Below, in pieces: positions 4,643 to 59,038 of a stretch of 64,000 nt of DNA. The notes beneath the pieces are model-generated. The model was not told the origin of the DNA, made no database searches, and saw only the letters and a program-made list of their open reading frames with translations. Made by a program: the position numbers and the translations under genes. The stretch comes from a virus, in IMG/VR virus record IMGVR_UViG_3300046012_000505, positions 1 through 64,000 of that record, one strand, 5' to 3'. Numbering within the stretch: the stretch's first letter is position 1; every line of letters begins with the position of its first letter.

Positions 4643-7600
4643 CACTCAACCGGGTTGCCAGTGGCGTCGTAGATTTTTCCAGTGGCCCTGTCCCGGAATT
4701 GGCGGCGTCCCGCGCTCCAATCGAGGTTCGGGGCAATGTCGGCAAGCGGCGCCGGTATCTGCGGACGAGCGGCAGGCGCGGCGGCCGTAGCCACGCCTGG
4801 AGCGGACGCCGGGGCAGCGCCGAGGCCGTAGTACGATCGCCACTTGTTCAGCGTGCCCACCGGATCGCCGACGCCGCCGACATCGCCCTTCGACGCTTCG
4901 ACGGCCAGCTTCTCTTGTGCCTGGTGGAGCATCTGCGCGTGCGTACCGGCCGGATCCTTGATGATTGCGAGCGCTTCCTGCGCCGTTTTGGCCGCGCCGC
5001 TATCCATGAGCGTCTTCACCAGCGCCTGCGTCATGCCGGCGTTGCCGCCAGCCTTTCCGGTGATCGATGAGCCCGGGTGGAATACCGGCTTCTCGTCGCC
5101 CTTGGTCGGCAACTGCCACATGCCGGTAACCGGCTGTCCCGACTCCGGGTCGGTGTCCGTGCCCGGCTGCCACTGGTAGCGGCCCATGTTGAGCAGTCCA
5201 GCGTGGTAATCTGCCAGTTCGTGATCGCGCTGCGCCTCGCGCGTGGCTTGGTCCTGCCGCACGCCGAGCTCGCCGCGATGATAGCCAGCAAGTTCATCGA
5301 GCTTCTTCGCCTCGAGCTCGTAGCCCTGCTTCCGGGCTGCGATCTCGTCCTTGCGGTACTGCGCCTCTGTGTCGAGCTTCTGCTGCTCGCGACCGGTCTG
5401 CTGCTGCTCGGCGATCGACTTCAGCCCGTGCTGCAACCCTTCGCCGACGGCGCCGAGCGCCTGCGGGTTGCGGCTCGCGGCCATACCCGCGCCGGCGGTA
5501 GCGAGCGCGAGCCACAGATTGGCGTTCCCGAAGCCGGACGGTGCCGGGTGCGAAGGCGCGGTAGGCTCGGCGGCCGCCGTCGTTGATGGGCCGGCGCTGA
5601 AGCCTGACGGTGCCGGCGGGAACGTGCCCTCGTGCGGCCGGTCGTCATCGCCGGGTGCCCCAAGGCCGCCTGGACCCCACTCGATATCGCCAACTCGGAC
5701 CATGCGACCGCGCCCGGAGACAGGGTCCCCCTGCCAGGTGAGAGTATTGGGATCGATATCGCTGATCGCGCCAGCCTTCGACCCGGGCAGCGGGCCATCG
5801 GTCTGCTGCCCAGAGAACCGCTGCAGGTCCGCCGCTATCGCCTTCTGTTGCGGAGAGAGCGGCGGGCGCGACGGGTCATAAAGTCCATCAGTAGCAGCGC
5901 GCCGCGCCGCCACCCTTGCAACCGCCGCCGGCGATGGCGTCGCGTCAACGCCCATGTCGACGCCGGGCATATTCATCTCCGGGCGGCCATACCGCACGGC
6001 ATCGTCGACAACGGCTGGATCGACGTCATCGCGAGTCGTCGGCGCGAAGCCACGCAGCGGGACCGGCGCGGCGTCAGGCGCGGGCGCCAGTTCGGCAGCT
6101 GACGCGACACCGGCAGGCACTGCCGGCATGCCATCGCGCATCGCCAGAGACGTCGGATGCCCCTCCGGAACGTCCGGAACATCATGGAACAGATTTGGCG
6201 TATTTGCCGGGTTGAAGGCGCGGGCGGCGCCGTGATAGATCGCGCTTCCAACATCCCCGAACCAGTCGCCCGGGTTGACAGGCGGCCGAGAACCCTTGAA
6301 ACCAGCAGGCAGCGTCGGCCCGACGAACGGCACCACATCCGGCTCCGGGCCGAACGTGTCGGCGAAATCGATATCCCCGCCGTCGGCAAACCCAGCGCGC
6401 CCGCCGCGCCGCATGCCGCCGGTCGGCATCGGCGCCGGGGCAAATCCGCTCGGCGCCGACGCGAAGGCCGTCGGCCCCATCTGTTGGTCCGCGCCCGGAT
6501 TCATCGTCTTCGCCGCCATTGCGCGGCGTAGCATCGCGCCCTGCGGCGTCGACGCCGGAACGCGCATCGAAAGCTCGCGCAGTTTCTCGATCGGCATCTG
6601 CGTGTAGTTCTGGTAGGAGCTCTGAAGATTGGCGTTGCCGGCGAACCCGCCGCCAGGCGCCATTGCAGCCGTGCTGACGTCGCCGCCTACATCGAAGTGA
6701 TGGCGCCGACGCACTGTCCCGCCATACCGCTTGCTGTTGTGGACGCGGAATCCGCCGGCGACGTAGGTATGCAGCCCCTCGACCGTAAGGTTGTAGACGT
6801 CATGCACACCATCGGCTCGGGCGATCCGCTCGACCACATGCAGGCCACCATTCCCAAGCGTCAGTTCGTCGCCCGGATTGATCGAGTCCGCGTCGACCCA
6901 GTCACCGCCGCCGGAAAGGAACGGATGCTCGCCCGTCGCGAGAACGAGCCCGTCAATCGAATAGACGGAATGGTTCTCGTGCTTCATCACGTCAGTGACG
7001 GCGCGAGACTCAAGGGCCGAGCCACGATGATCGGCGAACGCTGCGACCAGATCGCCGACGACGATATCCGCTATCGGGCGACTCGTTCCGTCGGCCATGA
7101 GAATGAGAGTCTCGCCGGTGAAGCAGCCGTCTCCGCCGCCGCCGTCGCCGCCGCCATCTCCCCCGCCGCCATCACCCCCGCCGCCGCCGCCACCACCAGC
7201 ATCGGCGCCAGTGCCGCCACCGCCGGCCTCGCCGCCGACGCCGCCCTCGCCATGGCCCGAGCCCGTGCCACTTTCGCCGCCGCCGTTGCCCACCCCGCCT
7301 GCGCCATTGTCGCCGCCAGGCGAACTTCCGACGCCGCCGGGACCTCCCTGCGTCCCGCCTTGCGCATTGTCCGCGCCTACCGAACCGGAGCCTACTCCGG
7401 CGCCATCGGTAGCGCCCGGAGCGCCTTCGCTGTCGACGCCGCCAGCGGATCCCTTCGGGCCCATCGGTTCCGGGCCGCCGAAGACGGAATTGGCCGGCGT
7501 CGGCGGGTCGATCGCGTGACCGATCGTTGCTCCAAGAGACCGGCCGGCGATGGCACCGACAGGACCAAGCAGACCACCGCCGATCGTCGATCCGATGTCC

Positions 7601-9354
7601 CTGCCGATCCCGACCGGGCTTGTGTCGATCCCGATGCTGTCGAGCGCGCTACCGAGGGACATGCCACCCCCCGACGTTGCCCCGCCACCCATGCCGCCCG
7701 CCGGACCGCTGCCGCTGCCGGGATCGCCGCCGCCGGTCGACGTGACCGGCAATCCGGTTGGCGACGCGCTCGCGCCCGTCGCCGCGGGCGAACCAGCCGG
7801 CGGCGTCGTGAACGGCGCGCTGCTCGGAGGCGGCGGCGAATAGTACGACGTCGGATTGATGTCGAGATTTCCGGACGGCGCCCCTCCCGTTCCGGAACCG
7901 CCGCCCGAAGGCACGCCCAGAATCGGGATCGGGATGCCGCGGCCAGGCGACGGCATGAACCCGGAGACGAGACCGATGCCGTTCGCATCTGCGAACCCAC
8001 CTTCCGCGAATCCGCGCCGCACGGCCCCGCCGCGACGAAAATCCGTCGGTACGGCACTGTCCAGCCATGAGACATCGCCGCCGCCGAACCCACCGAGCGA
8101 CCCGCTGACATCGCCGCCGAACCATCCGGCGCCAGCCGACTGACCGCTGGTCGCCGCCTCTGCGGCACCCGCCGACGATCCGCCCGAATCGAACGGCACG
8201 TTCGGACCGTTGTTCGGCCGCAGATTCATTCCGCTGACAGCCTTGGCAGCCGCGAGGGGGTCACCTGCCTCGTATGGCGGCGGAAATGCCGGCGGCCCCT
8301 TGCCGCGCGGTCCCGGCGGCAGATCCGGAATGAACGAGATCGACATATCAGGGATGTCGTGATGCGGCCCGACGAAACCACCGGCCGCACGGTGCGGAAT
8401 GCGACCGCCGCGAGCGGCGAACAGGTTCGTCAGCCACCCGTTCGACCCGAATCCGCCTGTGCCACCGATGACGCCAAGGGCACCGAGCCCCAGCCCGGCA
8501 ATCTGCCCAGTCGTGCTCGGCGCCGGCGATGTCGTCGTGCTCGTGCCGCCGCTATTCCCCCCGATGCCCTCGGTGATATTCGCGAGGTAATTGGTGGTCT
8601 GGAACGGATATGCCTGCCGCTGCAGGAACTGCTCGTACGGGATGTTGATTTCCGACTGCGCCAGTTGCTGCTGGAGCGCGCCGGTCTGCAATTGAGCCGA
8701 CGCGCCGGACAGCGCCGAATTCTGCGCTTCGTTGCCGAGCGCGCCAAACTGCGACGCCGCGTTCTCGGCGAGCCAGTTCTGCGCCTCCTGGGCACCAACG
8801 CCGGTTTGCTGCTCCGTGTTGAACTCGCCGAGCGCCTGGCTGTAGCCTTGGTTTCGCAGCCCGGCGAGGGTCTGGTCCTCGGCGAGCTTCTGCTGCCGCG
8901 CGAGCTCGCCCTGCGCCACGCCCGCGCGGTCACCACCCCATGCACCCTTCGCGATCGCGTTGCCGACGACACCCTGCTGCTGCTCGGCGTTGCTTTCGTC
9001 GATATTGGCGCGCGTCGTGTTGACGACGTCGTTCGTGTACGGCGACTCGTACTGCTGGACAGCCTGCGGCGAGAATGCGGTCGGCGTGACCGGAGTCGTG
9101 CCGGACGACGCAAACCCAGCCGCGGCGTTGATGTACGGGTTGGCCGCCCCTTGCGCATTATTGACGGTGTCGAACGCCTGCTGTTGCGCGGGCGTAAACC
9201 CGGCAACCATCGGGCCGGTGTACTGCTGCAACGGCGCATTGGCCGCCGTGGTCGCGCGCGAGACGACGTTGTTGTAGTTGTCGAGGACGCTCTGCGGCGG
9301 TCCCGACGTCGATGAGACTTGCTGGGTGCCGCCGCCGCTTGAGCCCTTGCACAC
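4642..9354 (-). CDS. Internal virion/DNA ejection protein, Gly-rich, with a Hint (mini-intein) domain at 6736-7125
   Basis: GTG start after GGAG; Gln/Ala-rich N-terminus (YESPYTNDVV, GAWGGDR) typical of podophage ejection proteins; CFTGET...TGEHPF...VYNLTVEGLHTYVAGGFRVHN|S. Confidence 0.8.
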   Translation of the reverse strand: MCKGSSGGGTQQVSSTSGPPQSVLDNYNNVVSRATTAANAPLQQYTGPMVAGFTPAQQQAFDTVNNAQGAANPYINAAAGFASSGTTPVTPTAFSPQAVQQYESPYTNDVVNTTRANIDESNAEQQQGVVGNAIAKGAWGGDRAGVAQGELARQQKLAEDQTLAGLRNQGYSQALGEFNTEQQTGVGAQEAQNWLAENAASQFGALGNEAQNSALSGASAQLQTGALQQQLAQSEINIPYEQFLQRQAYPFQTTNYLANITEGIGGNSGGTSTTTSPAPSTTGQIAGLGLGALGVIGGTGGFGSNGWLTNLFAARGGRIPHRAAGGFVGPHHDIPDMSISFIPDLPPGPRGKGPPAFPPPYEAGDPLAAAKAVSGMNLRPNNGPNVPFDSGGSSAGAAEAATSGQSAGAGWFGGDVSGSLGGFGGGDVSWLDSAVPTDFRRGGAVRRGFAEGGFADANGIGLVSGFMPSPGRGIPIPILGVPSGGGSGTGGAPSGNLDINPTSYYSPPPPSSAPFTTPPAGSPAATGASASPTGLPVTSTGGGDPGSGSGPAGGMGGGATSGGGMSLGSALDSIGIDTSPVGIGRDIGSTIGGGLLGPVGAIAGRSLGATIGHAIDPPTPANSVFGGPEPMGPKGSAGGVDSEGAPGATDGAGVGSGSVGADNAQGGTQGGPGGVGSSPGGDNGAGGVGNGGGESGTGSGHGEGGVGGEAGGGGTGADAGGGGGGGGDGGGGDGGGDGGGGDGCFTGETLILMADGTSRPIADIVVGDLVAAFADHRGSALESRAVTDVMKHENHSVYSIDGLVLATGEHPFLSGGGDWVDADSINPGDELTLGNGGLHVVERIARADGVHDVYNLTVEGLHTYVAGGFRVHNSKRYGGTVRRRHHFDVGGDVSTAAMAPGGGFAGNANLQSSYQNYTQMPIEKLRELSMRVPASTPQGAMLRRAMAAKTMNPGADQQMGPTAFASAPSGFAPAPMPTGGMRRGGRAGFADGGDIDFADTFGPEPDVVPFVGPTLPAGFKGSRPPVNPGDWFGDVGSAIYHGAARAFNPANTPNLFHDVPDVPEGHPTSLAMRDGMPAVPAGVASAAELAPAPDAAPVPLRGFAPTTRDDVDPAVVDDAVRYGRPEMNMPGVDMGVDATPSPAAVARVAARRAATDGLYDPSRPPLSPQQKAIAADLQRFSGQQTDGPLPGSKAGAISDIDPNTLTWQGDPVSGRGRMVRVGDIEWGPGGLGAPGDDDRPHEGTFPPAPSGFSAGPSTTAAAEPTAPSHPAPSGFGNANLWLALATAGAGMAASRNPQALGAVGEGLQHGLKSIAEQQQTGREQQKLDTEAQYRKDEIAARKQGYELEAKKLDELAGYHRGELGVRQDQATREAQRDHELADYHAGLLNMGRYQWQPGTDTDPESGQPVTGMWQLPTKGDEKPVFHPGSSITGKAGGNAGMTQALVKTLMDSGAAKTAQEALAIIKDPAGTHAQMLHQAQEKLAVEASKGDVGGVGDPVGTLNKWRSYYGLGAAPASAPGVATAAAPAARPQIPAPLADIAPNLDWSAGRRQFRDRATGKIYDATGNPVE

Positions 9355-9567
9355 GGATGGTCGCTCCAACTGAGCAACCCATCAGCAAGCGCTGCAAGAA
9401 ATGGGAAGGATTATCGACCGGACCGGCGGCGCGCCGATCGGGGAGATGGCTATTGTACGGCGATGCGAGGTCGCGCGCAACTGCGCGGTCGGGGATTTGA
9501 CTTTTCTGGAAATGCGCGCTCTGATTGCGCCGGTGTGCAGCAACGAACCATGCGAGCGAGATTCAAT

Positions 9568-10793: not shown

Positions 10794-11486
10794 TCAACGG
10801 GCCGGCCCTGGCAATTTCTGCATCTGCTTGATCGTCTTGGCGCGGACGTGTTTCACAAACGCGTCCAGCACGTTATGCCCCCGTCGCAGGGCGAGCTTCT
10901 TGTGGCCCGGGCTCCCATTCGGGTTTCCGCCGCCCAGATTCGGGTGATACGCCACCACCTCCGGCGGGATCACGACCTCGCCACCAGCCGCGACGATCGG
11001 CACGCGGCCCTCGTCGACGCCACCAGACCCGCCGCCGTGCGCGAGGTGCGAGGCGGCTGGCGCGTGCGGGATCGTTGAGCCGCCATGGCGCGGCGCGGCA
11101 TGAATACCGTACGGCATCGAGCCGAACATCTTGTCCGTGACGGCGGCGCCGGCCATCGTATTGCCCTCGCCGAGACCGGAAACGACGTCCGCCGGCAGCA
11201 CGTAGGCGCCGGCGGGGACGTCGAGATTGTGGATGTCGGTGCGCCCGGGCCCGGTCGACTTTATGAGGCCAGCGTTGAAGGGTCTGCCCTTCGACTCCTC
11301 CTCATGATACGCCTCGCGGGCGCCGAACGTCGGCGATGGTGGCGTATAGCCGCCGGCGGCGCGCGCCGTGCGCCGCGCAGTGTTCAATGCGATCGCAATG
11401 GCTTGCTGCCTCGGCTTCCCGGCAGACAACTCGCGCCGGATGTTCTCCGACACGGCACCCCGACTATCGCCCTGAACCAGCGGCAT
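10794..11486 (-). CDS. Virion-associated protein
   Basis: SENIRREL..GKPRQQAIAIAL and GPGRTD..P.GAYVLPADVVS motifs seen in phage virion proteins. Confidence 0.7.
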   Translation of the reverse strand: MPLVQGDSRGAVSENIRRELSAGKPRQQAIAIALNTARRTARAAGGYTPPSPTFGAREAYHEEESKGRPFNAGLIKSTGPGRTDIHNLDVPAGAYVLPADVVSGLGEGNTMAGAAVTDKMFGSMPYGIHAAPRHGGSTIPHAPAASHLAHGGGSGGVDEGRVPIVAAGGEVVIPPEVVAYHPNLGGGNPNGSPGHKKLALRRGHNVLDAFVKHVRAKTIKQMQKLPGPAR

Positions 11487-28292: not shown

Positions 28293-28913
28293 TTAGCTCT
28301 CGAGCGGCACGTTCCAGTAAAGCCAACTGCCAAAGTCCTCGCGGACGTCGGTCGGTAGGAACTCCAGCCCGGCGCGCAGCAGTTCCGCCGCCGTCGGCTG
28401 ACGCGGCTCCTTGAGCGGCCGCAGCCGACCATGCGCCGCGATTACGCCGCGCCGGCCACTGTGGTTGGCGTCCTTGTCGCCCTTCACGCCGTTGCAGTCC
28501 AGGCAAGCCGTCAGGATGTTCGTCCAGACGGTCTTGCCGCCCTTCGAACGCGGGACGAGGTGATCGAACGTGAGCTCGTTCGAGGGAAACGGCCCACCGC
28601 AATACTGACACCGGAATCGGTCTCGCAGCAAAATCGAGCGCCGGCAGAATTTCGGGGCGCCCGACACCGGCGCATACTGGCGAAGCGCTACGACCTTCGG
28701 GACAGCGACCGTGCACGACGGCGAATGGAAGAACGCATCTTCCCACGTCTCGACGACAGTCACGCGATCGCGATACTGCGCATGCACGGCCGCCTGCGCC
28801 GAGATCAGCGACAACGGCCACGTCGACAGCGGCTGGAAATCGGCGTTGAGCACGAGCGTGCGAAGCCCGGCGGCCGGCAGCGGTCTTCGTTGGGCCTCGC
28901 GAGCGGTTTGCAT
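28293..28913 (-). CDS. HNH endonuclease (McrA-like) at the end of the tRNA array
   Basis: TLVLNADFQPL...RRSILLRDRFRCQYCG...TFDHLVPRSKGG...ACLDCN..KG. Confidence 0.9.
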   Translation of the reverse strand: MQTAREAQRRPLPAAGLRTLVLNADFQPLSTWPLSLISAQAAVHAQYRDRVTVVETWEDAFFHSPSCTVAVPKVVALRQYAPVSGAPKFCRRSILLRDRFRCQYCGGPFPSNELTFDHLVPRSKGGKTVWTNILTACLDCNGVKGDKDANHSGRRGVIAAHGRLRPLKEPRQPTAAELLRAGLEFLPTDVREDFGSWLYWNVPLES

Positions 28914-28929: not shown

Positions 28930-29004
28930 TGGTGCCGGATGAAGGAATCGAACCCTCGCCGCCTGCGTACGAAACAGGAGCGCTACCACTACGCTCAATC
29001 CGGC
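28930..29004 (-). tRNA. tRNA-Thr(CGT)
   Basis: Cloverleaf, CCA encoded. Confidence 0.85.
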
Positions 29005-29009
29005 TATGC

Positions 29010-29084
29010 TGGTAGGGCCACGGAGAATCGAACTCGCGATCTACCGGTTAAAAGCCGGCAGCTCTGCCATTGAGCTATGGCCCC
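29010..29084 (-). tRNA. tRNA-Lys(TTT)
   Basis: Cloverleaf, CCA. Confidence 0.9.
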
Positions 29085-29090
29085 ATAGTT

Positions 29091-29167
29091 TGGTGCGCGG
29101 CCCGAGACTCGAACTCGGAACATCCGGGATTTGAAGCCGGCGCCTCTGCCTATTGGGCCAGCCGCGC
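29091..29167 (-). tRNA. tRNA-Leu(CAA), short variable loop
   Basis: Cloverleaf, A73, CCA. Confidence 0.8.
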
Positions 29168-29170
29168 GAT

Positions 29171-29246
29171 TGGTGGTCCCGCCGGGAGTCGAACCCGGAA
29201 TCTCCCGCTTCGGAGGCGGGCGCTCTGTCCATTGAGCCACGAGACC
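29171..29246 (-). tRNA. tRNA-Arg(CCG)
   Basis: Cloverleaf, CCA. Confidence 0.9.
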
Positions 29247-29250
29247 ATGT

Positions 29251-29322
29251 TGGCGACCCCGGCTGGATTCGAACCAGCAAAGGCGCGTTTAGAAGACGCG
29301 CGCGCATCCAATGCGCGGGGCC
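29251..29322 (-). tRNA. tRNA-Arg(TCT), reduced D-arm
   Basis: T-arm, anticodon arm and CCA clear. Confidence 0.75.
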
Positions 29323-29329
29323 ATGAAAT

Positions 29330-29407
29330 TGGCGCTCCCGGAGGGACTCGAACCCCCATTTTTCCAGATTCGTAATCTGGTGCCATCTCCAGTTAGGCGA
29401 CGGAAGC
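29330..29407 (-). tRNA. tRNA-Arg(ACG)
   Basis: Cloverleaf, CCA. Confidence 0.85.
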
Positions 29408-29408
29408 A

Positions 29409-29482
29409 TGGAGCCGCGGACGGGATTTGAACCCGCGTTGCGCTGATTGAAAATCAACTGTCCTACCTTAGACGACCGCGGC
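29409..29482 (-). tRNA. tRNA-Glu(TTC)
   Basis: Cloverleaf, CCA. Confidence 0.85.
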
Positions 29483-29486
29483 AAAA

Positions 29487-29561
29487 TGGTGGGCAACCGG
29501 CGAATCGAACGCCGCACATCTTGGATGTCGACCAAGCGCTCTGCCAATGAGCTAGTCGCCC
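29487..29561 (-). tRNA. tRNA-Val(GAC), C33
   Basis: Cloverleaf, CCA. Confidence 0.85.
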
Positions 29562-29566
29562 GTAAC

Positions 29567-29642
29567 TGGTGCTCCGTGAGGGACTCGAACCCCCGAATGC
29601 CTCGGTGTAAACGAGGTGACTTTGCCGCTTGTCGAACGGAGC
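29567..29642 (-). tRNA. tRNA-Val(TAC)
   Basis: Cloverleaf, CCA. Confidence 0.85.
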
Positions 29643-29744
29643 AAATTGAGTGCGGGGCGAGGGCGTGGCTGGCCATGTCACAGCCCTTTGGACTCGCGAT
29701 CTCGCCCCGCAGCGGACGACGCTCCTATCGCGCTCTCCGCAAGA

Positions 29745-29819
29745 TGGTCGGAGTGAGAGGAATCGAACCCCCATAGTCCTGCTCCCAAAGCAGGCGATCA
29801 GCCATTGACCCACACTCCG
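29745..29819 (-). tRNA. tRNA-Pro(TGG)
   Basis: Cloverleaf, C1-G72, CCA. Confidence 0.9.
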
Positions 29820-29823
29820 ATGA

Positions 29824-29899
29824 TGGTGCCCCCGACAGGATTCGAACCTGCGGCCTCCGAGTTAGGATCTCGGCGCACGTCCAATCGTGCTACGAGGGC
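29824..29899 (-). tRNA. tRNA-Arg(CCT)
   Basis: Cloverleaf, CCA. Confidence 0.9.
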
Positions 29900-29902
29900 A
29901 AT

Positions 29903-29980
29903 TGGTCAGCGTGGCAGGATTTGAACCTGCGGTCTCCTGCGTCCGAGGCAGGCACTTTTGCCAGGCTAAGCTACACGCTG
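29903..29980 (-). tRNA. tRNA-Pro(CGG)
   Basis: Cloverleaf, C1-G72, CCA. Confidence 0.9.
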
Positions 29981-29986
29981 AAAATC

Positions 29987-30063
29987 TGGCGCCCACGACG
30001 AGGATCGAACTCGCCGCAAACCGGATCGACAATCCGGCCCCGTCACCAGCTGGGTCCGTGGGC
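29987..30063 (-). tRNA. tRNA-Asp(GTC)
   Basis: Cloverleaf, G73, CCA. Confidence 0.85.
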
Positions 30064-30127
30064 ATGAAAGGTTCGCCGCGCTGCTGCTCATCAGGACCTA
30101 TGCAGCACGGCTACGCCGGCCGGCGAT

Positions 30128-30200
30128 TGGTGGCCCAGGTGGGGTTCTTACCCACATTGTCCTGCTTAAGAGGCAGGCCCGATTGTCCGGTCACTGAGCC
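30128..30200 (-). tRNA. tRNA-Lys(CTT), atypical T-loop TAAGAAC
   Basis: Acceptor, anticodon and T stems pair; CCA. Confidence 0.75.
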
Positions 30201-30207
30201 GTCGTGT

Positions 30208-30282
30208 TGGTAGTCGCGCGTGGAATCGAACCACGATCTCGCCCTTATCAAGAGCGTCCTCTGCCATTGAGATTACGCGACC
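30208..30282 (-). tRNA. tRNA-Ile(GAT)
   Basis: Cloverleaf, CCA. Confidence 0.85.
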
Positions 30283-30286
30283 AAAC

Positions 30287-30369
30287 TGGTGAGCCGGTGA
30301 GAAGTCGAATCTCTCCCCGAAGGAATGGATTTACAGTCCACCTGCCAGAACCGCTGGCTTTCCCGACCC
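30287..30369 (-). tRNA. tRNA-Tyr(GTA)
   Basis: Cloverleaf with variable arm, CCA. Confidence 0.85.
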
Positions 30370-30375
30370 GTGATA

Positions 30376-30449
30376 TGGAGCCCCAGCGCGGTACTGACCC
30401 GCGATACCCGCCTTACCAAAGCGGTGCACTGCCATTGTGCTACAGGGGC
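30376..30449 (-). tRNA. tRNA-Thr(GGT), atypical T-loop GTCAGTA
   Basis: Stems pair; CCA. Confidence 0.75.
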
Positions 30450-30452
30450 GAT

Positions 30453-30540
30453 TGGCGGAGCGGCGGGAATTCGAATCCCACACCGTGAGGTGCGCAGAGC
30501 TTAGCAGGCTCGCTCGGCGCCCTGACCGATTGCGCGCTCC
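30453..30540 (-). tRNA. tRNA-Ser(GCT)
   Basis: Cloverleaf with variable arm, G73, CCA. Confidence 0.85.
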
Positions 30541-30647
30541 ATACGTTTCCTCGAATACAGCCTCCTGCTGCGCACGATGCGCGGCCGGAAGATTCGCTCA
30601 CCGAGCGCCTTCGCCGCGGCGCTCCGGGATTTCTTCGGCTTGCGCAT
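30501..30647 (-). CDS. ArfA-like (alternative ribosome rescue factor A-like) peptide reading into tRNA-Ser(GCT)
   Basis: AAGGAG SD; MRKPKKSRSAAAKALGERIFRPRIVRSRRLYSRKR resembles the ArfA core (..L.DPLFRQRV..K....SY.RK); stop codon is in the tRNA anticodon loop. Confidence 0.6.
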   Translation of the reverse strand: MRKPKKSRSAAAKALGERIFRPRIVRSRRLYSRKRMERAIGQGAERAC

Positions 30648-30661
30648 GGCGCGCTCCTTGT

Positions 30662-30750
30662 TGGCGGAAGGCGGAGGAATCGAACCCCGATCGCTCATCA
30701 CGAACCCCTGGTTTTCAGGACCAGTTGCCAGCCATTTAGCGGCACCTTCC
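30662..30750 (-). tRNA. tRNA-Ser(TGA), C33
   Basis: Cloverleaf with variable arm, G73, CCA. Confidence 0.85.
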
Positions 30751-30755
30751 ATAAT

Positions 30756-30833
30756 TGGTACTCGCGGTCGGATTCGAACCGACACTGTCTTCCTTCTGAG
30801 GGAAGCGACTCCTTCCAGTTGGTCTACGCGAGC
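30756..30833 (-). tRNA. tRNA-Leu(CAG), short variable loop
   Basis: Cloverleaf, CCA. Confidence 0.85.
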
Positions 30834-30834
30834 A

Positions 30835-30911
30835 TGGTGCATGCGGAGAGATTCGAACTCTCACTTGACGGCTTCTCGAACCGCTTCCTCTGCCAGTTGG
30901 GATACGCATGC
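30835..30911 (-). tRNA. tRNA-Leu(GAG), short variable loop, C33
   Basis: Cloverleaf, CCA. Confidence 0.8.
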
Positions 30912-30913
30912 GT

Positions 30914-30988
30914 TGGTGCGGGCGTAGGGAGTCGAACCCTAAGAGCCTGGGGTTTAAGCCCGGCTGCGTCGCCGTGCGCCACGCCCGC
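30914..30988 (-). tRNA. tRNA-Leu(TAA), short variable loop
   Basis: Cloverleaf, CCA. Confidence 0.8.
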
Positions 30989-30993
30989 GTTGT

Positions 30994-31069
30994 TGGCGTC
31001 CCGTGGGGGAATCGAACCCACCGTTCCCGACTTGAGAGGCCGGTTTCCGAACCACTAGAAGAACGGGAC
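30994..31069 (-). tRNA. tRNA-Glu(CTC)
   Basis: Cloverleaf, CCA. Confidence 0.9.
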
Positions 31070-31073
31070 ATGA

Positions 31074-31144
31074 TGGAAGCCGGTGACGGTAGCGCGCCGC
31101 CCTCGGGAGCTTCAAAGGCTCCCTCACTCCTTGAGCAACCGGCC
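31074..31144 (-). tRNA. tRNA-Gln(TTG), degenerate T-loop and short D-arm
   Basis: Acceptor and anticodon stems pair; CCA. Confidence 0.65.
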
Positions 31145-31149
31145 AGAGA

Positions 31150-31224
31150 TGGAAGCGATCGGGGGAGTCGAACCCACCATCAGCGCGTTCAGAGCGCGCC
31201 GTCCTACCGTTGAACGAGATCGCC
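31150..31224 (-). tRNA. tRNA-Gln(CTG)
   Basis: Cloverleaf, CCA. Confidence 0.85.
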
Positions 31225-31225
31225 A

Positions 31226-31300
31226 TGGAGCCCGCGGCGCAGAATCGAACTCGCGTCGGCCAGGTACAGGCTGGCTGCTCTGCCACTGAGCTACACGGGC
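31226..31300 (-). tRNA. tRNA-Thr(TGT), C33
   Basis: Cloverleaf, CCA. Confidence 0.8.
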
Positions 31301-31303
31301 AAT

Positions 31304-31377
31304 TGGGGTGAAGCCGGGGATCGAACCCTGCTCTCCGCGTTCACAGCGCGGTGTCCTGCCACTGAACGAGCCTCACC
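31304..31377 (-). tRNA. tRNA-His(GTG) with G-1:C73
   Basis: Cloverleaf, CCCA end. Confidence 0.9.
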
Positions 31378-31384
31378 ATCGACT

Positions 31385-31456
31385 TGGAGTCGCAGTCGGG
31401 AATTGAACCCGACCGCGCGGTTTTGCAGACCGCGCCGTCCGCCTGGACACCGCGAC
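31385..31456 (-). tRNA. tRNA-Cys(GCA)
   Basis: Cloverleaf, U73, CCA. Confidence 0.85.
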
Positions 31457-31459
31457 AGT

Positions 31460-31530
31460 TGGCACCAGCGGAAGGAATCGAACCCTCGTCCAGGCGTTTG
31501 GAGTGCCTGTTGGCGCCACGCCACGCTGGT
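31460..31530 (-). tRNA. tRNA-Trp(CCA)
   Basis: Cloverleaf, G73, CCA. Confidence 0.85.
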
Positions 31531-31533
31531 AAT

Positions 31534-31610
31534 TGGCTCCTCACCCAGGACTCGAACCTGGAACGACGAGATTAACAGTCTCGCTCCCGTGCCGACCGGG
31601 ACCGTGAGGA
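31534..31610 (-). tRNA. tRNA-Asn(GTT)
   Basis: Cloverleaf, TCC start, G73, CCA. Confidence 0.9.
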
Positions 31611-31618
31611 ATAAAACT

Positions 31619-31694
31619 TGGAGCGGACGGCCGGAATCGAACCGTGCTTAGGGCGGTTTGGAAGACCGCTGGGCAGCCAATGCCCCACATCCGC
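31619..31694 (-). tRNA. tRNA-Gly(TCC)
   Basis: GCG start, U73, CCA. Confidence 0.85.
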
Positions 31695-31697
31695 AAT

Positions 31698-31773
31698 TGG
31701 TGCCGCCCCTCGGGATCGAACCGAGATATCCGGTTCTTCAAACCGGCGCCTTGACCACGTCGGCCAGAGCGGC
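31698..31773 (-). tRNA. tRNA-Phe(GAA)
   Basis: Cloverleaf, CCA. Confidence 0.9.
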
Positions 31774-31885
31774 AAATGGGAAACAGGAGGTCTGACTGGT
31801 GAGGCCAGTATTCTCCTGCCCGGCATCGCGACAGACAGGGGACCACCCTGCCCGCCCTAGCCCCATCGTGCGCCAATCGGCGCGT

Positions 31886-31957
31886 TGGTTGCAGCGGTCG
31901 GAGTCGAACCGACGCGACTGAGTTTATGAGACTCAGCGGGAACCGTTCCTCACTGCA
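31886..31957 (-). tRNA. tRNA-Met(CAT), U1-A72
   Basis: Cloverleaf with short D-arm, CCA. Confidence 0.8.
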
Positions 31958-31958
31958 A

Positions 31959-32053
31959 TGGTAGTCGTCGTAGGTTTCGAACCTACCCGTTCCAGGCCGT
32001 CCGCCCGGTCTCGCGCGCTTATAAGGCGCACCCGCTCACCAGAGCCGACGACC
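31959..32053 (-). tRNA. tRNA-Ile(TAT) with long variable arm
   Basis: 7-bp acceptor, TTCGAAA T-loop, loop CT-TAT-AA, ~25-nt variable region. Confidence 0.8.
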
Positions 32054-32058
32054 AAATA

Positions 32059-32132
32059 TGGAGCGTCCGCCGGTAATCGAAACCGGTCCTTCTCGTTGGC
32101 AACGAGAGGCTCGACCCTCGAGCTACGGACGC
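32059..32132 (-). tRNA. tRNA-Gly(GCC)
   Basis: GCG start, U73, CCA. Confidence 0.9.
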
Positions 32133-32136
32133 GAAT

Positions 32137-32211
32137 TGGTGGACCTATGGGTAGTCGAAACCCAAGACAGTGATCTTGCAAAGATCGCCCGCTGTTCCGC
32201 AGCTTAGGCCC
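32137..32211 (-). tRNA. tRNA-Ala(TGC)
   Basis: G3:U70 present, CCA. Confidence 0.85.
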
Positions 32212-32323
32212 ATAGCGGCACGCATGGCTGCGCGCCGCGAAATTCTGCCGACGCTTGAAACCAGCCTGCCCCGCCGGTCCGCATCTCTGCGGGTTTGATC
32301 GGAGCCGAACTACAAGCCGCCGT

Positions 32324-32845: not shown

Positions 32846-35485
32846 TCAAATCACCCGCGGATGACCACTCGGCGGTTTCGCGAGACCACCTTTGTCGCGA
32901 GCGGCCTTCGCGGCTGCTTCGCGCTCGGCCTCGGCAGCGGCCATCTCGTCGGCGTGGTGACGGTCCTCCTGAGCGATGACGTCGCGGTGGTGCTCGTCCG
33001 CCTGCCGGTGCTCGGCGACGCCGCGCAGGTGCTCGCGGATTACGCCGCCAGTCTTGGCGCCCATCTCGGCGGCGTGCCGATCGGCATCGGCGGAAAGCTC
33101 GTTCCTCTGCTGGATATGATCCGACACGAGGCCAGCCGCGTGACGCGCCTGCTCAGCGGCCAAGCTGTCGCTGTGCTGCTGCAAGTCTGACGCGATGCCG
33201 GCGTGCGTCTTCGCCAGGTCGGCATTCGCCTTGATCTGTTCCGTCTCCTCGCGCATGCCGGCGACACGCTCGCGCGACTCGCGATCGGCGGCGCGATCGG
33301 CGGACTCGACGGCCACCTCGCGGGCACGCGCGTCTTGCGCGGCCTTCGCCTCGATCGCGTCCTGCGCACTCTGCGCCGCGTTGGCCTGCTGCTTATTCGC
33401 CTCGGTCGAGGCTTTCAACTGCAGCGCCGCCATCTTCGCCGGGTCCGGCGGCGGCGCACCAGGCGCCGGTGCGCCGGGCGGAGGCGGTGGCGCGAACAGC
33501 TTCTGGTAATTGCCGATCCCGATCATCTTCAAGATCATGCTATCGACCGCCTTGCCGTCGTACAGCCCGGGGTTCATCGCCTGCAGCTGCTTGATGGCGA
33601 CCGCCTTCATGATCCGCTGCATGTGGCTCGAGGTGTTCGGGTCGGCGGCCGGCACGATGTCGCACTTTTCGAGCGCGGCGATGAACTGCGCCTGTTTCCA
33701 CGGCTTCGCGCATTTCGGATTGTGGCGCCAGAACGCTTCCGGGTCTTCGCGGAACCTCTCTTTGAGCAGCTGGAATTCCTCGCTCTGCGCGGCGTGCAGG
33801 CGGACGTGCACCGCTGACAGCATCTTGCCGGCCTGCTCAATGAGCGCCAGAGTCGTGCCGACCGGCGCGTCCTGGCGCCCCTCGCCGACCTGGAGCTCGG
33901 CCGTGCCGCCGACGCGCTGGCCGGTGGTCTCGACGTCCTTGACCAGCATCGCGAGCCCTTGGCCCACGTCCTTGTAGGGCAACGGCATCACGACGTTCTG
34001 AATGGGCTGCGAGCCGGTCTGGATTTTCGCGCCCATGCCGGGCCCGACGCGGAACACGTTGGTCTGCTGGCGACCAACCGAGTCGGCGTACAGGAAGCCG
34101 GGAAAAGACGCGAACATGCCGGTGTCGAGCATCATGCGCCACGCCGCGGTCAGCGCCTTGTCGGCATTGCCGAGCAGGTGCAGCAGGCCGATGTCGTAGA
34201 AGCCCATGGCGGGGATGAACGGGAATTTGACGAACACCCGCTTGGGCAGGCAGTTGATGTCGTCCTTCTTCCAGTTGCGGCGTATCTCGAGGATTTGCCG
34301 GCTGTCCTTGTCAAGCGTCACCCGGTAGGGAAGCTCCAGCCCGGTCGGCTTGCCGTCGCTGTCGACGTGCTCGAGCCCCTTGATGTTCAGTTCCGTGTAG
34401 CACTCGTAGATCGTGAACTGCGCGTCTTCCGGCCGCTGCATCCGATCATTGAAGCCCTGCACCATCGCGATGGTCGTATCGACGGCGTTCGGCTGGTAGG
34501 TCGGCTGGCCGGCGGTGAGGCTCCCGAGGTTGCGGTAGACGCCGGCGATCTGCATGCGGACCAGCGTCGAGCGGCGCATGAGAATACGGTGCGTGACGCG
34601 TCCGGAATCCTCGAAGTCGTTCGCGGCGTTCGACACGATGAGGTCCGACGCATCGACCGAGCGCGAGATCGGCATCCGGCGGATCGGGCAGTTGTAGACC
34701 TTCTTGAACCCGGCGCCGCCGAAGCCGACCCAAAACAGCATCCGGTCCGTGTCGGGCCGATAGCCCTTATCTGTCGCGGTCAGGTAGTGGTTGAAGTCTT
34801 TCTCTAGCGCTTCGGCGAGATCGTCGCCGTCCTCATCGGTCTGCGCGTTTGGATCGGCGGAGGCGGCCGCGGGGTCCGGACCGTCCGTCAGTTCCGGGCC
34901 GCCGTTGTGGCCGATGCCAGGCGGAGCGCCCGGCGGCGGCGCAGGCTTGATCGGCGAGTCGTCGCGGACCTTGACTGGTCCGCCGGCTGGCAGCAGCTCG
35001 GCGCTGGCATTCGACTGGAACCGGATCACGGCCTCGGTGAGCAGCGGGTGACGGACCGTCGACATGCCCTCGACCGGCGCCGATGCCGTGCCGGTGTCGC
35101 CGCGCGGCTCCTCGAGCTTGAAGCCCAGCAACTCGATGCCGGCCGCGCGGGTTTGCAGCCATTCGTCGCGCGACTGGTCGTCCTGCTGGATCGCGTCGCT
35201 CAATTGCGAGGCGATGCGCCCGAGCTCGCCGGGATCGATGAAGTCGGCGAGGTTGGCGTCGTGGTCTTCGGGGTTGATTTTCTTCGCCGCCGGCGACTGC
35301 GGGCTGAGGTCGATCTTTACCGAGCCATCCTCGACCTCGATTTTGAGCGCGCCGGAAGCCGGGTCCGCCGTTCCCTCGGCGGTTTCCTCGCCGGGCAGGA
35401 TGATAACCGTCGACTCGCCGGGCTCATCGTTCGCGGCGGCCGGCTCCGGCGCCGGCATGAACCCTCTGGCGAGATTGGCGACCAT
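32846..35485 (-). CDS. Portal protein with long helical C-terminal barrel
   Basis: DDQSRDEW, HPLLTEAVIRFQS.A.AELLPAGGPVK, GFKKVY, PAMGFYDIGL, APVGTTLAL. Confidence 0.9.
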   Translation of the reverse strand: MVANLARGFMPAPEPAAANDEPGESTVIILPGEETAEGTADPASGALKIEVEDGSVKIDLSPQSPAAKKINPEDHDANLADFIDPGELGRIASQLSDAIQQDDQSRDEWLQTRAAGIELLGFKLEEPRGDTGTASAPVEGMSTVRHPLLTEAVIRFQSNASAELLPAGGPVKVRDDSPIKPAPPPGAPPGIGHNGGPELTDGPDPAAASADPNAQTDEDGDDLAEALEKDFNHYLTATDKGYRPDTDRMLFWVGFGGAGFKKVYNCPIRRMPISRSVDASDLIVSNAANDFEDSGRVTHRILMRRSTLVRMQIAGVYRNLGSLTAGQPTYQPNAVDTTIAMVQGFNDRMQRPEDAQFTIYECYTELNIKGLEHVDSDGKPTGLELPYRVTLDKDSRQILEIRRNWKKDDINCLPKRVFVKFPFIPAMGFYDIGLLHLLGNADKALTAAWRMMLDTGMFASFPGFLYADSVGRQQTNVFRVGPGMGAKIQTGSQPIQNVVMPLPYKDVGQGLAMLVKDVETTGQRVGGTAELQVGEGRQDAPVGTTLALIEQAGKMLSAVHVRLHAAQSEEFQLLKERFREDPEAFWRHNPKCAKPWKQAQFIAALEKCDIVPAADPNTSSHMQRIMKAVAIKQLQAMNPGLYDGKAVDSMILKMIGIGNYQKLFAPPPPPGAPAPGAPPPDPAKMAALQLKASTEANKQQANAAQSAQDAIEAKAAQDARAREVAVESADRAADRESRERVAGMREETEQIKANADLAKTHAGIASDLQQHSDSLAAEQARHAAGLVSDHIQQRNELSADADRHAAEMGAKTGGVIREHLRGVAEHRQADEHHRDVIAQEDRHHADEMAAAEAEREAAAKAARDKGGLAKPPSGHPRVI

Positions 35486-56176: not shown

Positions 56177-56367
56177 CCGGCGCCGACATGTGCGCGTGGA
56201 GAACCCGTCTCGCGCTGCGCCAGGAGGACGCCGCGTCGCTCATCGGCTGCTCCAGCCGCCGGCTACGCAGCTACGAGCACGACGACGCGATTATCCCGAG
56301 GAAGATCGAACTCGCGTGTGAGGCGATCGAGGCACGTTTAACGAGGGGGAATGAAAATGCAGCGTGA
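56173..56367 (+). CDS. Small HTH (Cro-like) protein
   Basis: AWRTRLALRQEDAASLIGCS.R....YE....IPRKIELAC. Confidence 0.7.
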   Translation: MTGADMCAWRTRLALRQEDAASLIGCSSRRLRSYEHDDAIIPRKIELACEAIEARLTRGNENAA

Positions 56368-59038
56368 GATCGAGGTCGACAACTTCGCGGGCGGCGGCGG
56401 CGCGTCCACTGGCATCGAGATGGCGACAGGGCGCCCGATCGCCATCGCGGTGAACCACGACGAAGAAGCCATCGCGATGCACGCCGCCAATCATCCCGAC
56501 ACGGAACATATGTGCCAGTCCGTGTGGCGCGCTGATCCCCGCGACGTGGCGCGCGGGCGCCCCGTCGGCCTCGCGTGGTTCTCGCCCGATTGCTTTCCAG
56601 CCGGCACAATGGTTCTGACGCGCGACGGCTACCGCGCGATCGAGGAGATTCAAGCCGGCGACGAAGTGCTCACGCACAGGCTGCGCTGGAAAAAAGTCAC
56701 CGAGACGCACCAAACCACCAAGCCTGTGCTGACGCTACGCGGGCACGGCCATCCAGGCTTGACCGTGAGCCATGAGCATCCGTTCTATGCGCGCCAGCGA
56801 CCGGCGCCGGTTTGGAACAATGATCGCCGGTCTTACGAGTGGAATTTGAACGAGCCGAGATGGGCGCCAGCATCGATGCTGGATCGCGGATGGTACTGGG
56901 GCACGCCGCGCCAGTTTCCCCCGTCAGAAGCTCCCGCCGTTGGCGGCCGCGGAATGATGGTCGACGAAAGCCTGATGTGGCTCGCCGGCCGCTATCTCGG
57001 CGATGGCTGGTCTCGCATCACAGAAACGCGCGCCGAACTTGTCATAATCTGCGGCAAGCATGAGCATCAAACCCTCCGCGCGACGCTGGAGGCATGGCCG
57101 CGCCAGGGTTACCGTGCGGGACACAACGAACTTGCATGGCATTGGCGCGAGGTCGAGACCGCCTATCAGGGATCAACCAATCATCGCGGCCTTGTCGAGT
57201 GGCTACGCTCGCACTTCGGTCACGGGGCCGGCACGAAGACCGTGCCAGCATGGGCCTTGGGTCTATCCGACCACCTGCGCCGCGCTCTGCTGCAAGGCTA
57301 CCTCAGCGCCGACGGCAACCGCGATCACGCCAAGGCTTTCGTCGAGTGCAACACAATCTCTAAAGCTCTCGCCTTCGGCATCAAGGCGCTGGCTAATAGC
57401 CTGGGTCACACCGCAGGAATCTATCTCAACAGCAATAACACCACTACCATCGAGGGCCGCATTGTCTCGGCGCAACCGATTTACAAGCTGCGCTGGCGGG
57501 ATGAAGTCTCGGCACTTCACGAGCAGACGCGCACCGAGAACGGCATCGAATGGTGTCCCATCCGTGAGCAGTCTGACACGGGGCAATCAGCCACGGTCTA
57601 TAACATCGGCGTTGAGGACGACGAGAGCTATATCGTCGAGGGGATCATCGTCCACAACTGCAAGCACTTCTCCAAGGCGAAGGGCAGTCAGCCCGTCAAG
57701 CGCAACATCCGCGACCTCGCCTGGGTGGTGATCCATTGGGCGAAGCTCGTGCAGCCGCGCATCATCATGCTGGAGAACGTCGAGGAATTCCGCGATTGGG
57801 GTCCGCTGATCGAGGGCGTCGACGGTAAGATGGTTCCCTGCCCGCTCCGCAAGGGGCTGACCTATCGCCGCTGGAAACGGGAGTTGGTGAAGCTCGGATA
57901 CCGCGTCGAGGACCGCGAGCTACGCGCCTGCGACTACGGTGCGCCGACCATCCGCAAGCGCCTGTTCGTCATCGCGCGGCGCGACGGCCTGCCGATCATT
58001 TGGCCGGCGCCTACGCACGCCCCTCTTCGGCTAAGCCAGGATGGCATCGTTACGGAGTGGGCACGCGGACATGGCCTGACACTTAAGGACATCCAAAACC
58101 TCAAGCCGTACCGCACCGCGGCAGACTGCATCGACTGGTCTATTCCTTGCCCGTCGATCTTCGAGCGCGATCGCCCGCTGGCCGAGAACACCATGCGGCG
58201 TATCGCGGCAGGCATCAAACGCTACGTGATCGACGCGGCCACGCCATTCATCGTGCCGGTGACGCACCACGGCGACAGCCGAGTCCACGGCATCGACGAG
58301 CCGCTCCGTACCGTGACCACGGCACCCCGAGGCGAACACGCCCTGGTGACGCCGTTCATCGCCCCGCGCTACGGCGAGCGCCCGGGCCAGGAGCCGCGCA
58401 CCCACGCCGCCGACAAGCCGATCCCGACCATCGTTCCGACCGCGAACGGCGCCCGGCTAGTCGCGGCGTTCATGGCGCAGCACAATACCGGGATGGTAGG
58501 CCACCCGATGACCAAGCCTCTCTCCACCATCATCCAACGCGGAACGACGCAGGGTCTCGTGACGTCCAACCTCGTCAAGCTGCGCGGCACCTGCAAGGAC
58601 GGCCAGCCAGTCGACGAGCCGGCGCCGACGATCACCGCCGGCGGATGGCACATCGGCGAAGTCCGCGCCTTCCTCATCAAGTATTTCGGCACCGACCAGG
58701 ATCCGCGCCTGGAGGAGCCGATGCACACCGTCACGACGCGCGACCGCTTCGGCCTCGTCACCGTGGCCGGCGAGGAATACCAGATTGTCGACATTGGGAT
58801 GCGGATGCTGACCCCGCGCGAGCTTTTCCGGGCGCAGGGCTTCCCGGAATCGTACATCATCGATCCGATGTTCAACGGAAAGCCCCTGACGAAGACATCC
58901 CAGGTCCGCTGCTGCGGCAACTCTGTCTGTCCGCCGCTGTCCGAGGCGCTTGTCCGGGCGAATTACGTGCCCGATCAGGTCGCGCCGACGCGGCGCCGTC
59001 CAGCCGCCGTCCAGCCTGTCGTCGCGGCGCTGTTCTGA
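56351..59038 (+). CDS. DNA cytosine-5 methyltransferase with intein
   Basis: DNFAGGGGAS, SPD|C, LENVEEF, YGAPTIRKRLF, RMLTPREL..AQGFP, CGNSV. Confidence 0.92.
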   Translation: MKMQREIEVDNFAGGGGASTGIEMATGRPIAIAVNHDEEAIAMHAANHPDTEHMCQSVWRADPRDVARGRPVGLAWFSPDCFPAGTMVLTRDGYRAIEEIQAGDEVLTHRLRWKKVTETHQTTKPVLTLRGHGHPGLTVSHEHPFYARQRPAPVWNNDRRSYEWNLNEPRWAPASMLDRGWYWGTPRQFPPSEAPAVGGRGMMVDESLMWLAGRYLGDGWSRITETRAELVIICGKHEHQTLRATLEAWPRQGYRAGHNELAWHWREVETAYQGSTNHRGLVEWLRSHFGHGAGTKTVPAWALGLSDHLRRALLQGYLSADGNRDHAKAFVECNTISKALAFGIKALANSLGHTAGIYLNSNNTTTIEGRIVSAQPIYKLRWRDEVSALHEQTRTENGIEWCPIREQSDTGQSATVYNIGVEDDESYIVEGIIVHNCKHFSKAKGSQPVKRNIRDLAWVVIHWAKLVQPRIIMLENVEEFRDWGPLIEGVDGKMVPCPLRKGLTYRRWKRELVKLGYRVEDRELRACDYGAPTIRKRLFVIARRDGLPIIWPAPTHAPLRLSQDGIVTEWARGHGLTLKDIQNLKPYRTAADCIDWSIPCPSIFERDRPLAENTMRRIAAGIKRYVIDAATPFIVPVTHHGDSRVHGIDEPLRTVTTAPRGEHALVTPFIAPRYGERPGQEPRTHAADKPIPTIVPTANGARLVAAFMAQHNTGMVGHPMTKPLSTIIQRGTTQGLVTSNLVKLRGTCKDGQPVDEPAPTITAGGWHIGEVRAFLIKYFGTDQDPRLEEPMHTVTTRDRFGLVTVAGEEYQIVDIGMRMLTPRELFRAQGFPESYIIDPMFNGKPLTKTSQVRCCGNSVCPPLSEALVRANYVPDQVAPTRRRPAAVQPVVAALF
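56591..57658 (+). mobile_element. Intein (356 aa) with LAGLIDADG homing endonuclease
   Basis: CFPAGT...HEHPF...WLAGRYLGDG...LLQGYLSADG...VYNIGV...IVHN|C. Confidence 0.9.

Follow-up and report, generated by a model that had tools for sequence, protein, structure and literature searches.

A probable ArfA relative encoded between two tRNAs of a phage tRNA array, with its only stop codon inside a tRNA-like element

ArfA (YhdL; PF03889) serves E. coli and other beta- and gammaproteobacteria as an alternative factor for ribosome rescue that depends on RF2, and its mRNA is made stop-less by RNase III at a hairpin. The 5′ ends of bacterial tRNAs are made by a different nuclease, RNase P. Expression of both arfA and brfA goes through stop-less mRNAs and is repressed by tmRNA, the brfA message being made stop-less by a terminator inside the ORF (PMC8012679). 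Small rescue factors have evolved more than once, the KH motif is common to ArfA and BrfA, a 40-residue truncation of ArfA has been reported inactive, and further back-up rescue factors are expected to exist (PMC8012679). Such back-up factors are tiny, fast-evolving and easily missed. ArfA genes in phages have already been published for Citromicrobium phage RXM, whose g10 is annotated as ArfA and named as such (PMC8953757).

We analyzed a 64,000-nt stretch of phage DNA (the window), which is the first 64 kb of the 101,002-bp IMG/VR record IMGVR_UViG_3300046012_000505 (65.8% GC; completeness estimated at 89%). One spacer of its tRNA array encodes a peptide that is probably, to judge from its alignments, a divergent, shortened relative of the ArfA family. 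What is new here is a branch lacking KGKGS, its location in a near-complete array with a tRNA on either side, and its dependence on the next tRNA-like element for a stop codon.

The tRNA array and the open frame

The SU10-type portal gene is followed by a terminator on the same strand and then by a dense tRNA array (28930–32211) of about 36 tRNA genes. ARAGORN found 31 of these at default settings, and another three, Ser-UGA, Gln-UUG and Lys-CUU, once its thresholds were lowered; Rfam, and Rfam only, adds a probable class-II tRNA, perhaps Tyr. The irregular array tRNAs missed at the ARAGORN defaults lie at 30662–30750, 31074–31144, 30128–30200 and, for the Rfam-only case, 30291–30369 (all minus strand). 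No tmRNA gene was found in the whole 101-kb record. Directly after the last tRNA is a 206-codon ORF (28293–28913, minus) with, by eye, an HNH-type CxxC...DH...N...CxxC pattern, which would be an HNH endonuclease gene at the array end if that pattern holds. Elsewhere in the window, intein-type Hint domains occur in two genes, at 4642–9369 (minus) and 56351–59038 (plus); one encodes a 1,575-residue protein, and the other a C-5 cytosine DNA methylase interrupted by Hint plus LAGLIDADG.

Spacers in the array are mostly 1–8 nt, with five long ones of 64–121 nt. The longest, at 121 nt, carries the ORF studied here. The other four are at 29643–29744, 30064–30127, 31774–31885 and 32212–32322 (all minus), and their folding compared with shuffles gives z-scores of −3.9, −1.7, −2.6 and −2.4, respectively. 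An ATG with a Shine-Dalgarno sequence is absent from all four, which may serve as processing sites or represent small RNAs or decayed tRNAs.

Table 1. Features of the ORF-bearing spacer and its surroundings, in coordinates of the 64,000-nt window
Feature	Position	Strand	Basis or remark
Portal gene	32846–35485	minus	SU10-type
tRNA-Ser(UGA), class II, encoded CCA	30662–30750	minus	ARAGORN at lowered threshold; Rfam long-arm tRNA model, 32.4 bits
Shine-Dalgarno AAGGAG	30654–30659	minus	2 nt past CCA, 6 nt ahead of ATG
Whole open frame, 48 codons plus TAA	30501–30647	minus	sequence
35 spacer codons before the tRNA-like element, proposed functional peptide	30543–30647	minus	family alignment
Residues 6–28 (KSRSAAAKALGERIFRPRIVRSR)	30564–30632	minus	aligned to N-terminal half of ArfA-family proteins
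Long imperfect hairpin	30570–30654	minus	−53.7 kcal/mol; encloses ATG and codons 1–26
Strongly diverged block in the relative from soil run X3	30589–30630	minus	17 substitutions, +1 and −1 indel; frame kept
tRNA-Ser(GCU)-like element, irregular acceptor/D junction, G73-CCA	30453–30540	minus	hand-drawn cloverleaf
First in-frame stop TAA	30501–30503	minus	positions 36–38, CUGCUAA anticodon loop

The ORF-bearing spacer lies between tRNA-Ser(UGA), which sits upstream and whose CCA ends at 30662, and a tRNA-Ser(GCU)-like element (Table 1). An initial annotation of this DNA, made by reading the letters, had pointed to the Shine-Dalgarno sequence close behind that CCA; it is directly visible, with the ATG (30647–30645) at the distance given in the table. 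Translation yields MRKPKKSRSAAAKALGERIFRPRIVRSRRLYSRKR and then 13 further codons, up to the TAA at 30503–30501. The same annotation had described this frame as running to a stop in the anticodon loop of the next tRNA: the frame and its TAA stand in the sequence, whereas ARAGORN and Rfam do not recognize the element as a tRNA. On the minus strand the spacer has no promoter and no terminator inside, and there are no copies of it elsewhere in the genome; it is not a repeated element.

The downstream element was missed by ARAGORN even at -ps90, and by the Rfam tRNA models at E ≤ 10 in searches with 321 nt and with 98 nt. By hand it can be drawn as an 88-nt class-II cloverleaf: the 6-bp acceptor stem, which has a C:C mismatch, is followed by G73-CCA, the T-loop is TTCGAAT, the anticodon loop reads CUGCUAA and the variable arm has 4 bp. 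For the drawing to work, the acceptor and D stems must be joined by a connector of 4 nt, and the anticodon stem must be one of 4 bp. This cloverleaf has −29.7 kcal/mol, compared with −39.8 for the minimum free energy fold, which differs from it. AGY codons have no other decoder in the array and several of the array tRNAs are irregular, so we take the element as a probable, putative tRNA. RNase P is proposed to act at its 5′ end, where a cut at 30541/30540 would leave 35 codons plus ‘AU’.

Similarity to the ArfA family

The likeness to ArfA had first been seen by eye, and direct searches do not recover it. The peptide has no match at E ≤ 10 in Pfam or NCBIfam, and none among PDB sequences, ArfA chains included; BLASTP against E. 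coli ArfA (from NC_000913.3) gave nothing, as did a six-frame search of the whole genome with PF03889. An hhalign comparison with 20 enterobacterial ArfAs reproduced the by-eye alignment, but with P 0.17. Nor were homologues of the peptide found in IMG/VR or GTDB genomes, in a word search of 5.8 billion proteins at near and longer lengths, or by tblastn of phages and plasmids; HMMER on 1.84 billion proteins returned one repetitive junk match only, and the ESM Atlas returned unnamed clusters only, with scores of about 0.9 and low recognition. Exact patterns of the tRNA ends and spacer had no match in IMG/VR, and the portal relatives in IMG/VR and metagenomes (at most 57% identity) have no tRNA array near the portal gene.

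The connection to ArfA was made through phage proteins. In PHROGs the peptide has one match, to phrog_20887, a family of unknown function (E 6e-4, 20.7 bits; peptide residues 7–36 against profile positions 3–32 of 46), and in a six-frame search of the 101-kb genome with that profile this ORF is the only match reported (E 1.4e-4). The profile has no match in 11 phage records with related portals, nor in nine of ten tRNA-rich phages. In the tenth, Microcystis phage Mwe-JY26, it matches an annotated 52-residue protein with KGKGSY (XAI95969.1) that is itself above the Pfam ArfA gathering score, at 27.1 bits.

Further phage homologues were collected by tblastn with the Mwe-JY26 protein, giving a set of nine: Mwe-JY26, RXM g10, Caulobacter phage Cr30, Erythrobacter phages vB_EliS-L02 (L02) and XM05, Roseobacter phages CRP-212 and CRP-13, Ralstonia phage RsoM2USA, and Pelagibacter phage HTVC034P. 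All except CRP-13 pass the PF03889 gathering score, and the same eight keep KGKGS or KGRGS, CRP-13 being without KGKGS. Over the same region as our peptide, phrog_20887 scores 22.0 bits with Cr30, 20.4 with CRP-13, 19.1 with RXM and 17.2 with Mwe-JY26; the match to CRP-212 is weak (12.6 bits, E 0.2), and L02, XM05, RsoM2USA and HTVC034P have none at E ≤ 1. A profile of the nine phage sequences finds enterobacterial ArfA with E 2.7e-12, over E. coli residues 11–49.

When the nine homologues, our sequence excluded, were compared with the 35-residue peptide by hhalign, 23 columns aligned at 39% identity with P 1.6e-4. The score, 20.5, was reached by none of 300 composition-preserving shuffles of the peptide (mean 8.6, maximum 16.2), and the reversed peptide scored 8.9, the background level. 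MAFFT places the peptide in register with the phage family, at 37% identity to Cr30. In that alignment the last homologous residue is codon 35, the next base is position 1 of the tRNA-like element, and the Cr30 homologue has its stop opposite codon 36 of our ORF. Where the family has KGKGS the peptide has a 3-residue gap and RR-LY, which bears out the statement in the initial annotation that this motif is absent; the KH motif is absent too, there being no histidine in the 35-residue part.

Against the full-length phage-family HMM the peptide reaches only E 0.76, because KGKGS dominates that profile and the peptide lacks it. With an HMM of the part before KGKGS, the ORF (E 0.07) and the peptide of a relative from soil run X3, described below (E 0.03), are the top two of 2,210 sequences, namely the 2,209 six-frame ORFs of the genome plus the X3 peptide, which ranks first. 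Homology to ArfA over the pre-KGKGS region (A-x-x-L ... F-R-x-R-V) is thus found by way of the nine phage proteins. The by-eye likeness accordingly fails with Pfam, BLASTP and the enterobacterial profile and is recovered, in the same alignment, through phage members of the ArfA family as intermediates; the profile search against ArfA that had been suggested as a check is likewise negative when direct and positive through the phage profile.

Genes of the ArfA family proved common in phages, among them many that infect Alphaproteobacteria, cyanobacteria and others; in GenBank records, several lack annotation or have a wrong-strand CDS called across them. The Cr30 ORF (KF301602.1, about 11139–11291, reverse strand) is unannotated, between two annotated genes, and two genes upstream of an RNA ligase gene; it scores 27.2 bits, above the Pfam ArfA threshold. 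Phage L02 has an unannotated 43-residue ORF (OL955261.1, 144095–144226) with a Pfam ArfA score of 33 bits and no tRNA within 5 kb. In RsoM2USA (MG752970.1) a 40-residue ORF above the Pfam ArfA threshold is overlapped in GenBank by the opposite-strand CDS RsoM2USA_176, and its TAA stands 10 nt before tRNA-Pro, the first of the cluster Pro, Cys, Glu, Glu.

A second family may be related. Cr30, CRP-212 and CRP-13 have weak matches to DUF7230 (PF23876), with E 0.02–0.09, and the DUF7230 proteins of phages CBB, nt-1 and phiPsa381 have an N-P-[VL]-A start and a basic K-H-K tail, as do the phage ArfA-like proteins; the Pfam families DUF7230 and ArfA may be related. The DUF7230 genes of CBB, nt-1 and phiPsa381 each end at a stop of their own, with no tRNA closer than 1.5 kb, and our peptide has no match to PF23876 at E ≤ 10.

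Coding and folding signals of the spacer

An open frame of 35 codons is nothing unusual at 66% GC. The codon-usage score of the ORF is 2.96 bits, which lies at the 24th percentile for windows read in frame and within the top 17% for windows read out of frame, and does not discriminate coding from non-coding. GC3 is 83% for the ORF and 76% for the phage genes. The Shine-Dalgarno sequence and start codon are canonical; the arrangement AAGGAG-N4-9-ATG occurs at five sites on both strands of the 101-kb genome, compared with about two expected, and three of the five start long genes. The long hairpin of the spacer (Table 1) has z −1.8 against dinucleotide shuffles and buries the ATG in its stem.

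From the open frame, codon usage, Shine-Dalgarno count and hairpins alone, a non-coding spacer was the leading reading before the homology tests. By this reading the spacer is a structured processing element, such as a double-strand nuclease site or a folding insulator, and both the ORF and its family likeness are fortuitous. It accords with the structured state of all five long array spacers (z −1.7 to −3.9), with the position of the ATG inside a stem and with a codon usage that does not discriminate. It is harder to reconcile with a profile similarity that is specific and survives shuffling, and with the restriction of Shine-Dalgarno plus ATG to this one of the long spacers.

A relative of the spacer bears on the same choice. 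The region is contained in three public runs, all of DNA, and no RNA run is listed. A lake-water metagenome has an identical 330-nt contig, covering 30257–30586 of the window. Soil run X3, from another study, has low-depth contigs that are 97–100% identical over the neighboring tRNAs, and a 224-nt contig that covers 30556–30709 with 24 substitutions and three indels. The X3 spacer was rebuilt from the listed differences, three of the substitutions not being among those listed. Its GGAG core, ATG and frame are all kept, the frame through a +1/−1 indel pair, and its peptide is MRKPKK-PPNLAAQAVRSPLC-RPRIVRSRRL, the ends of which have no listed difference from ours, though up to three differences near the contig ends are possible. 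The middle 42 nt have been replaced, in mosaic fashion, with the indels 6 nt apart. Past 30556 (codon 30), the remaining 71 nt of the contig are unlike our sequence, and the junction of ORF and tRNA-like element is thus not conserved in X3.

The X3 peptide matches the phage family with an hhalign score of 21.7, where ours has 20.5, with P 3e-5 and none of 300 shuffles as good. That a replaced block should fit the ArfA-like family equally well would be hard to explain for a non-coding hairpin, and the fit of both alleles to the family profile argues for ongoing selection on the protein. The block is also the apex of the hairpin: it is again self-complementary in X3, and the two conserved blocks at the stem base pair with each other, so the RNA structure may be under selection too, as the non-coding reading would have it. 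The X3 hairpin is, however, no more stable than shuffles (z −1.2), and the retained Shine-Dalgarno core, ATG and frame also tell against a purely structural element. We regard that alternative as improbable, and consider it likely that the spacer ORF is a real gene related to ArfA.

Proposed stop-less control and comparison with known systems

The explanation that we propose is that a real ArfA-like gene without a stop of its own would have its message made stop-less by an RNase P cut and so come under tmRNA control; as a whole we hold it tentatively, with a little less than even confidence. The array would be transcribed as one precursor, and RNase P would cut at the 5′ end of the tRNA-Ser(GCU)-like element while maturing it. 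The spacer RNA would be translated, the peptide being made mostly from the stop-less message; ribosomes on that message would need tmRNA, which would tag the product, so that the peptide level would be tied to tmRNA capacity. The peptide itself would act on stalled ribosomes. As there is no stop before the element, tRNA maturation could leave the message stop-less, and non-stop control by RNase P, inferred from this layout, is geometrically plausible.

A non-stop message made by RNase P was the central claim of the initial annotation. The geometry agrees with it, as does the end of the homologous part at the 5′ end of the element; the uncertified status of that tRNA and the stops of the homologues do not. 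Whether homologues also abut a tRNA 5′ end had been suggested as a check: a tRNA adjoins one of the nine phage genes (RsoM2USA), and all nine have their own stop codon. Also against the mechanism, the junction differs in X3, the start codon is buried in a stable stem, the channel contacts of KGKGS and KH are missing, and the 35-residue product would be shorter than the inactive 40-residue ArfA truncation. We rate the parts separately. That stop-less control operates is a possible prediction toward which we are somewhat skeptical; that the peptide has true release-factor-dependent rescue activity is predicted with still more reserve, as rather unlikely. The full picture of an ArfA-type phage factor in the array, from whose message RNase P removes the only stop and which accumulates only when host tmRNA is saturated, is a prediction that we would likewise place on the unlikely side.

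The stops of the nine homologues are also the first point for a simpler account, in which the gene is real and ArfA-related and its overlap with the tRNA has no regulatory meaning. A 48-residue protein would then be made from the unprocessed precursor and would terminate as usual at the UAA, or the ORF would be a remnant in decay, KGKGS and the stop having been lost once the gene had landed in the array. The loss of both KGKGS and KH fits this account, as do the altered junction in X3 and the irregularity of the downstream element, which may be processed poorly as a tRNA. The exact coincidence of the end of homology with the 5′ end of the element speaks against it, as does the ongoing selection on the protein suggested by the two alleles of the diverged block. 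We judge it unlikely, though well worth weighing. Another account would make the peptide a phage inhibitor or modulator of rescue, one that occupies stalled host ribosomes, at the A site or in the empty mRNA channel, and recruits no release factor. The pre-KGKGS part and basic tail are kept, while the contacts that ArfA and BrfA conserve through KGKGS and KH (PMC8012679) are missing, which would suit such a role; we infer this possibility from the retained parts and think it very improbable.

If our explanation is true, this would be a third independent route to the same feedback, after RNase III for arfA and the internal terminator for brfA, and a single transcript would link tRNA supply, tRNA processing and ribosome rescue. 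If stop-less control holds, phages with near-complete tRNA sets would also manage stalled ribosomes, and the roughly 300-nt locus would be a compact genetic device for tmRNA-dependent control. The locus would add a KGKGS-less branch to the ArfA family in phages, and its design is simple and testable, with tRNA maturation itself as the step that would deprive the message of a stop.

Like ArfA, the product is a small basic peptide, and its residues 6–28 align through the phage homologues with the ArfA stretch before KGKGS (NAIEALLHDPLFRQRVEK); its frame too has no usable stop of its own, and a nuclease-made stop-less mRNA is plausible. Unlike ArfA, it has no direct profile match, no KGKGS and no KH, and it has 35 residues where active ArfA has about 55; in the ribosome-channel tail, RSRRLYSRKR stands where ArfA has KGKGS and KH. 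The proposed nuclease differs as well, RNase P acting at a tRNA-like element in place of RNase III at a hairpin, and the gene is phage-encoded, inside a tRNA array.

BrfA of B. subtilis and ArfT of Francisella are likewise small basic factors, and brfA is also made stop-less by a device other than RNase III; its internal terminator points to repeated origins of this control logic (PMC8012679). For both factors the mechanism has been established by experiment, whereas ours is read from sequence, and no sequence relation to them was seen. Animal mitochondrial tRNA punctuation resembles our layout in that an ORF abuts a tRNA 5′ end and RNase P cleavage sets the mRNA 3′ end. There, polyadenylation turns U or UA into a stop, whereas our message would end in ...CGU AU, which is not completable in this way.

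The closest relatives are the phage ArfA-family mini-proteins, which were grouped with phrog_20887 and phrog_37108. Ours shares with them its size class, the N-terminal motif N-x-x-A-x-x-L ... [FY]-R-x-R-x-V, and phrog_20887 scores comparable to those of Cr30, CRP-13, RXM and Mwe-JY26. CRP-13 is also without KGKGS, and the RsoM2USA gene is also directly upstream of a tRNA cluster; in comparison with all nine, only ours is embedded between two tRNAs and reads into one of them.
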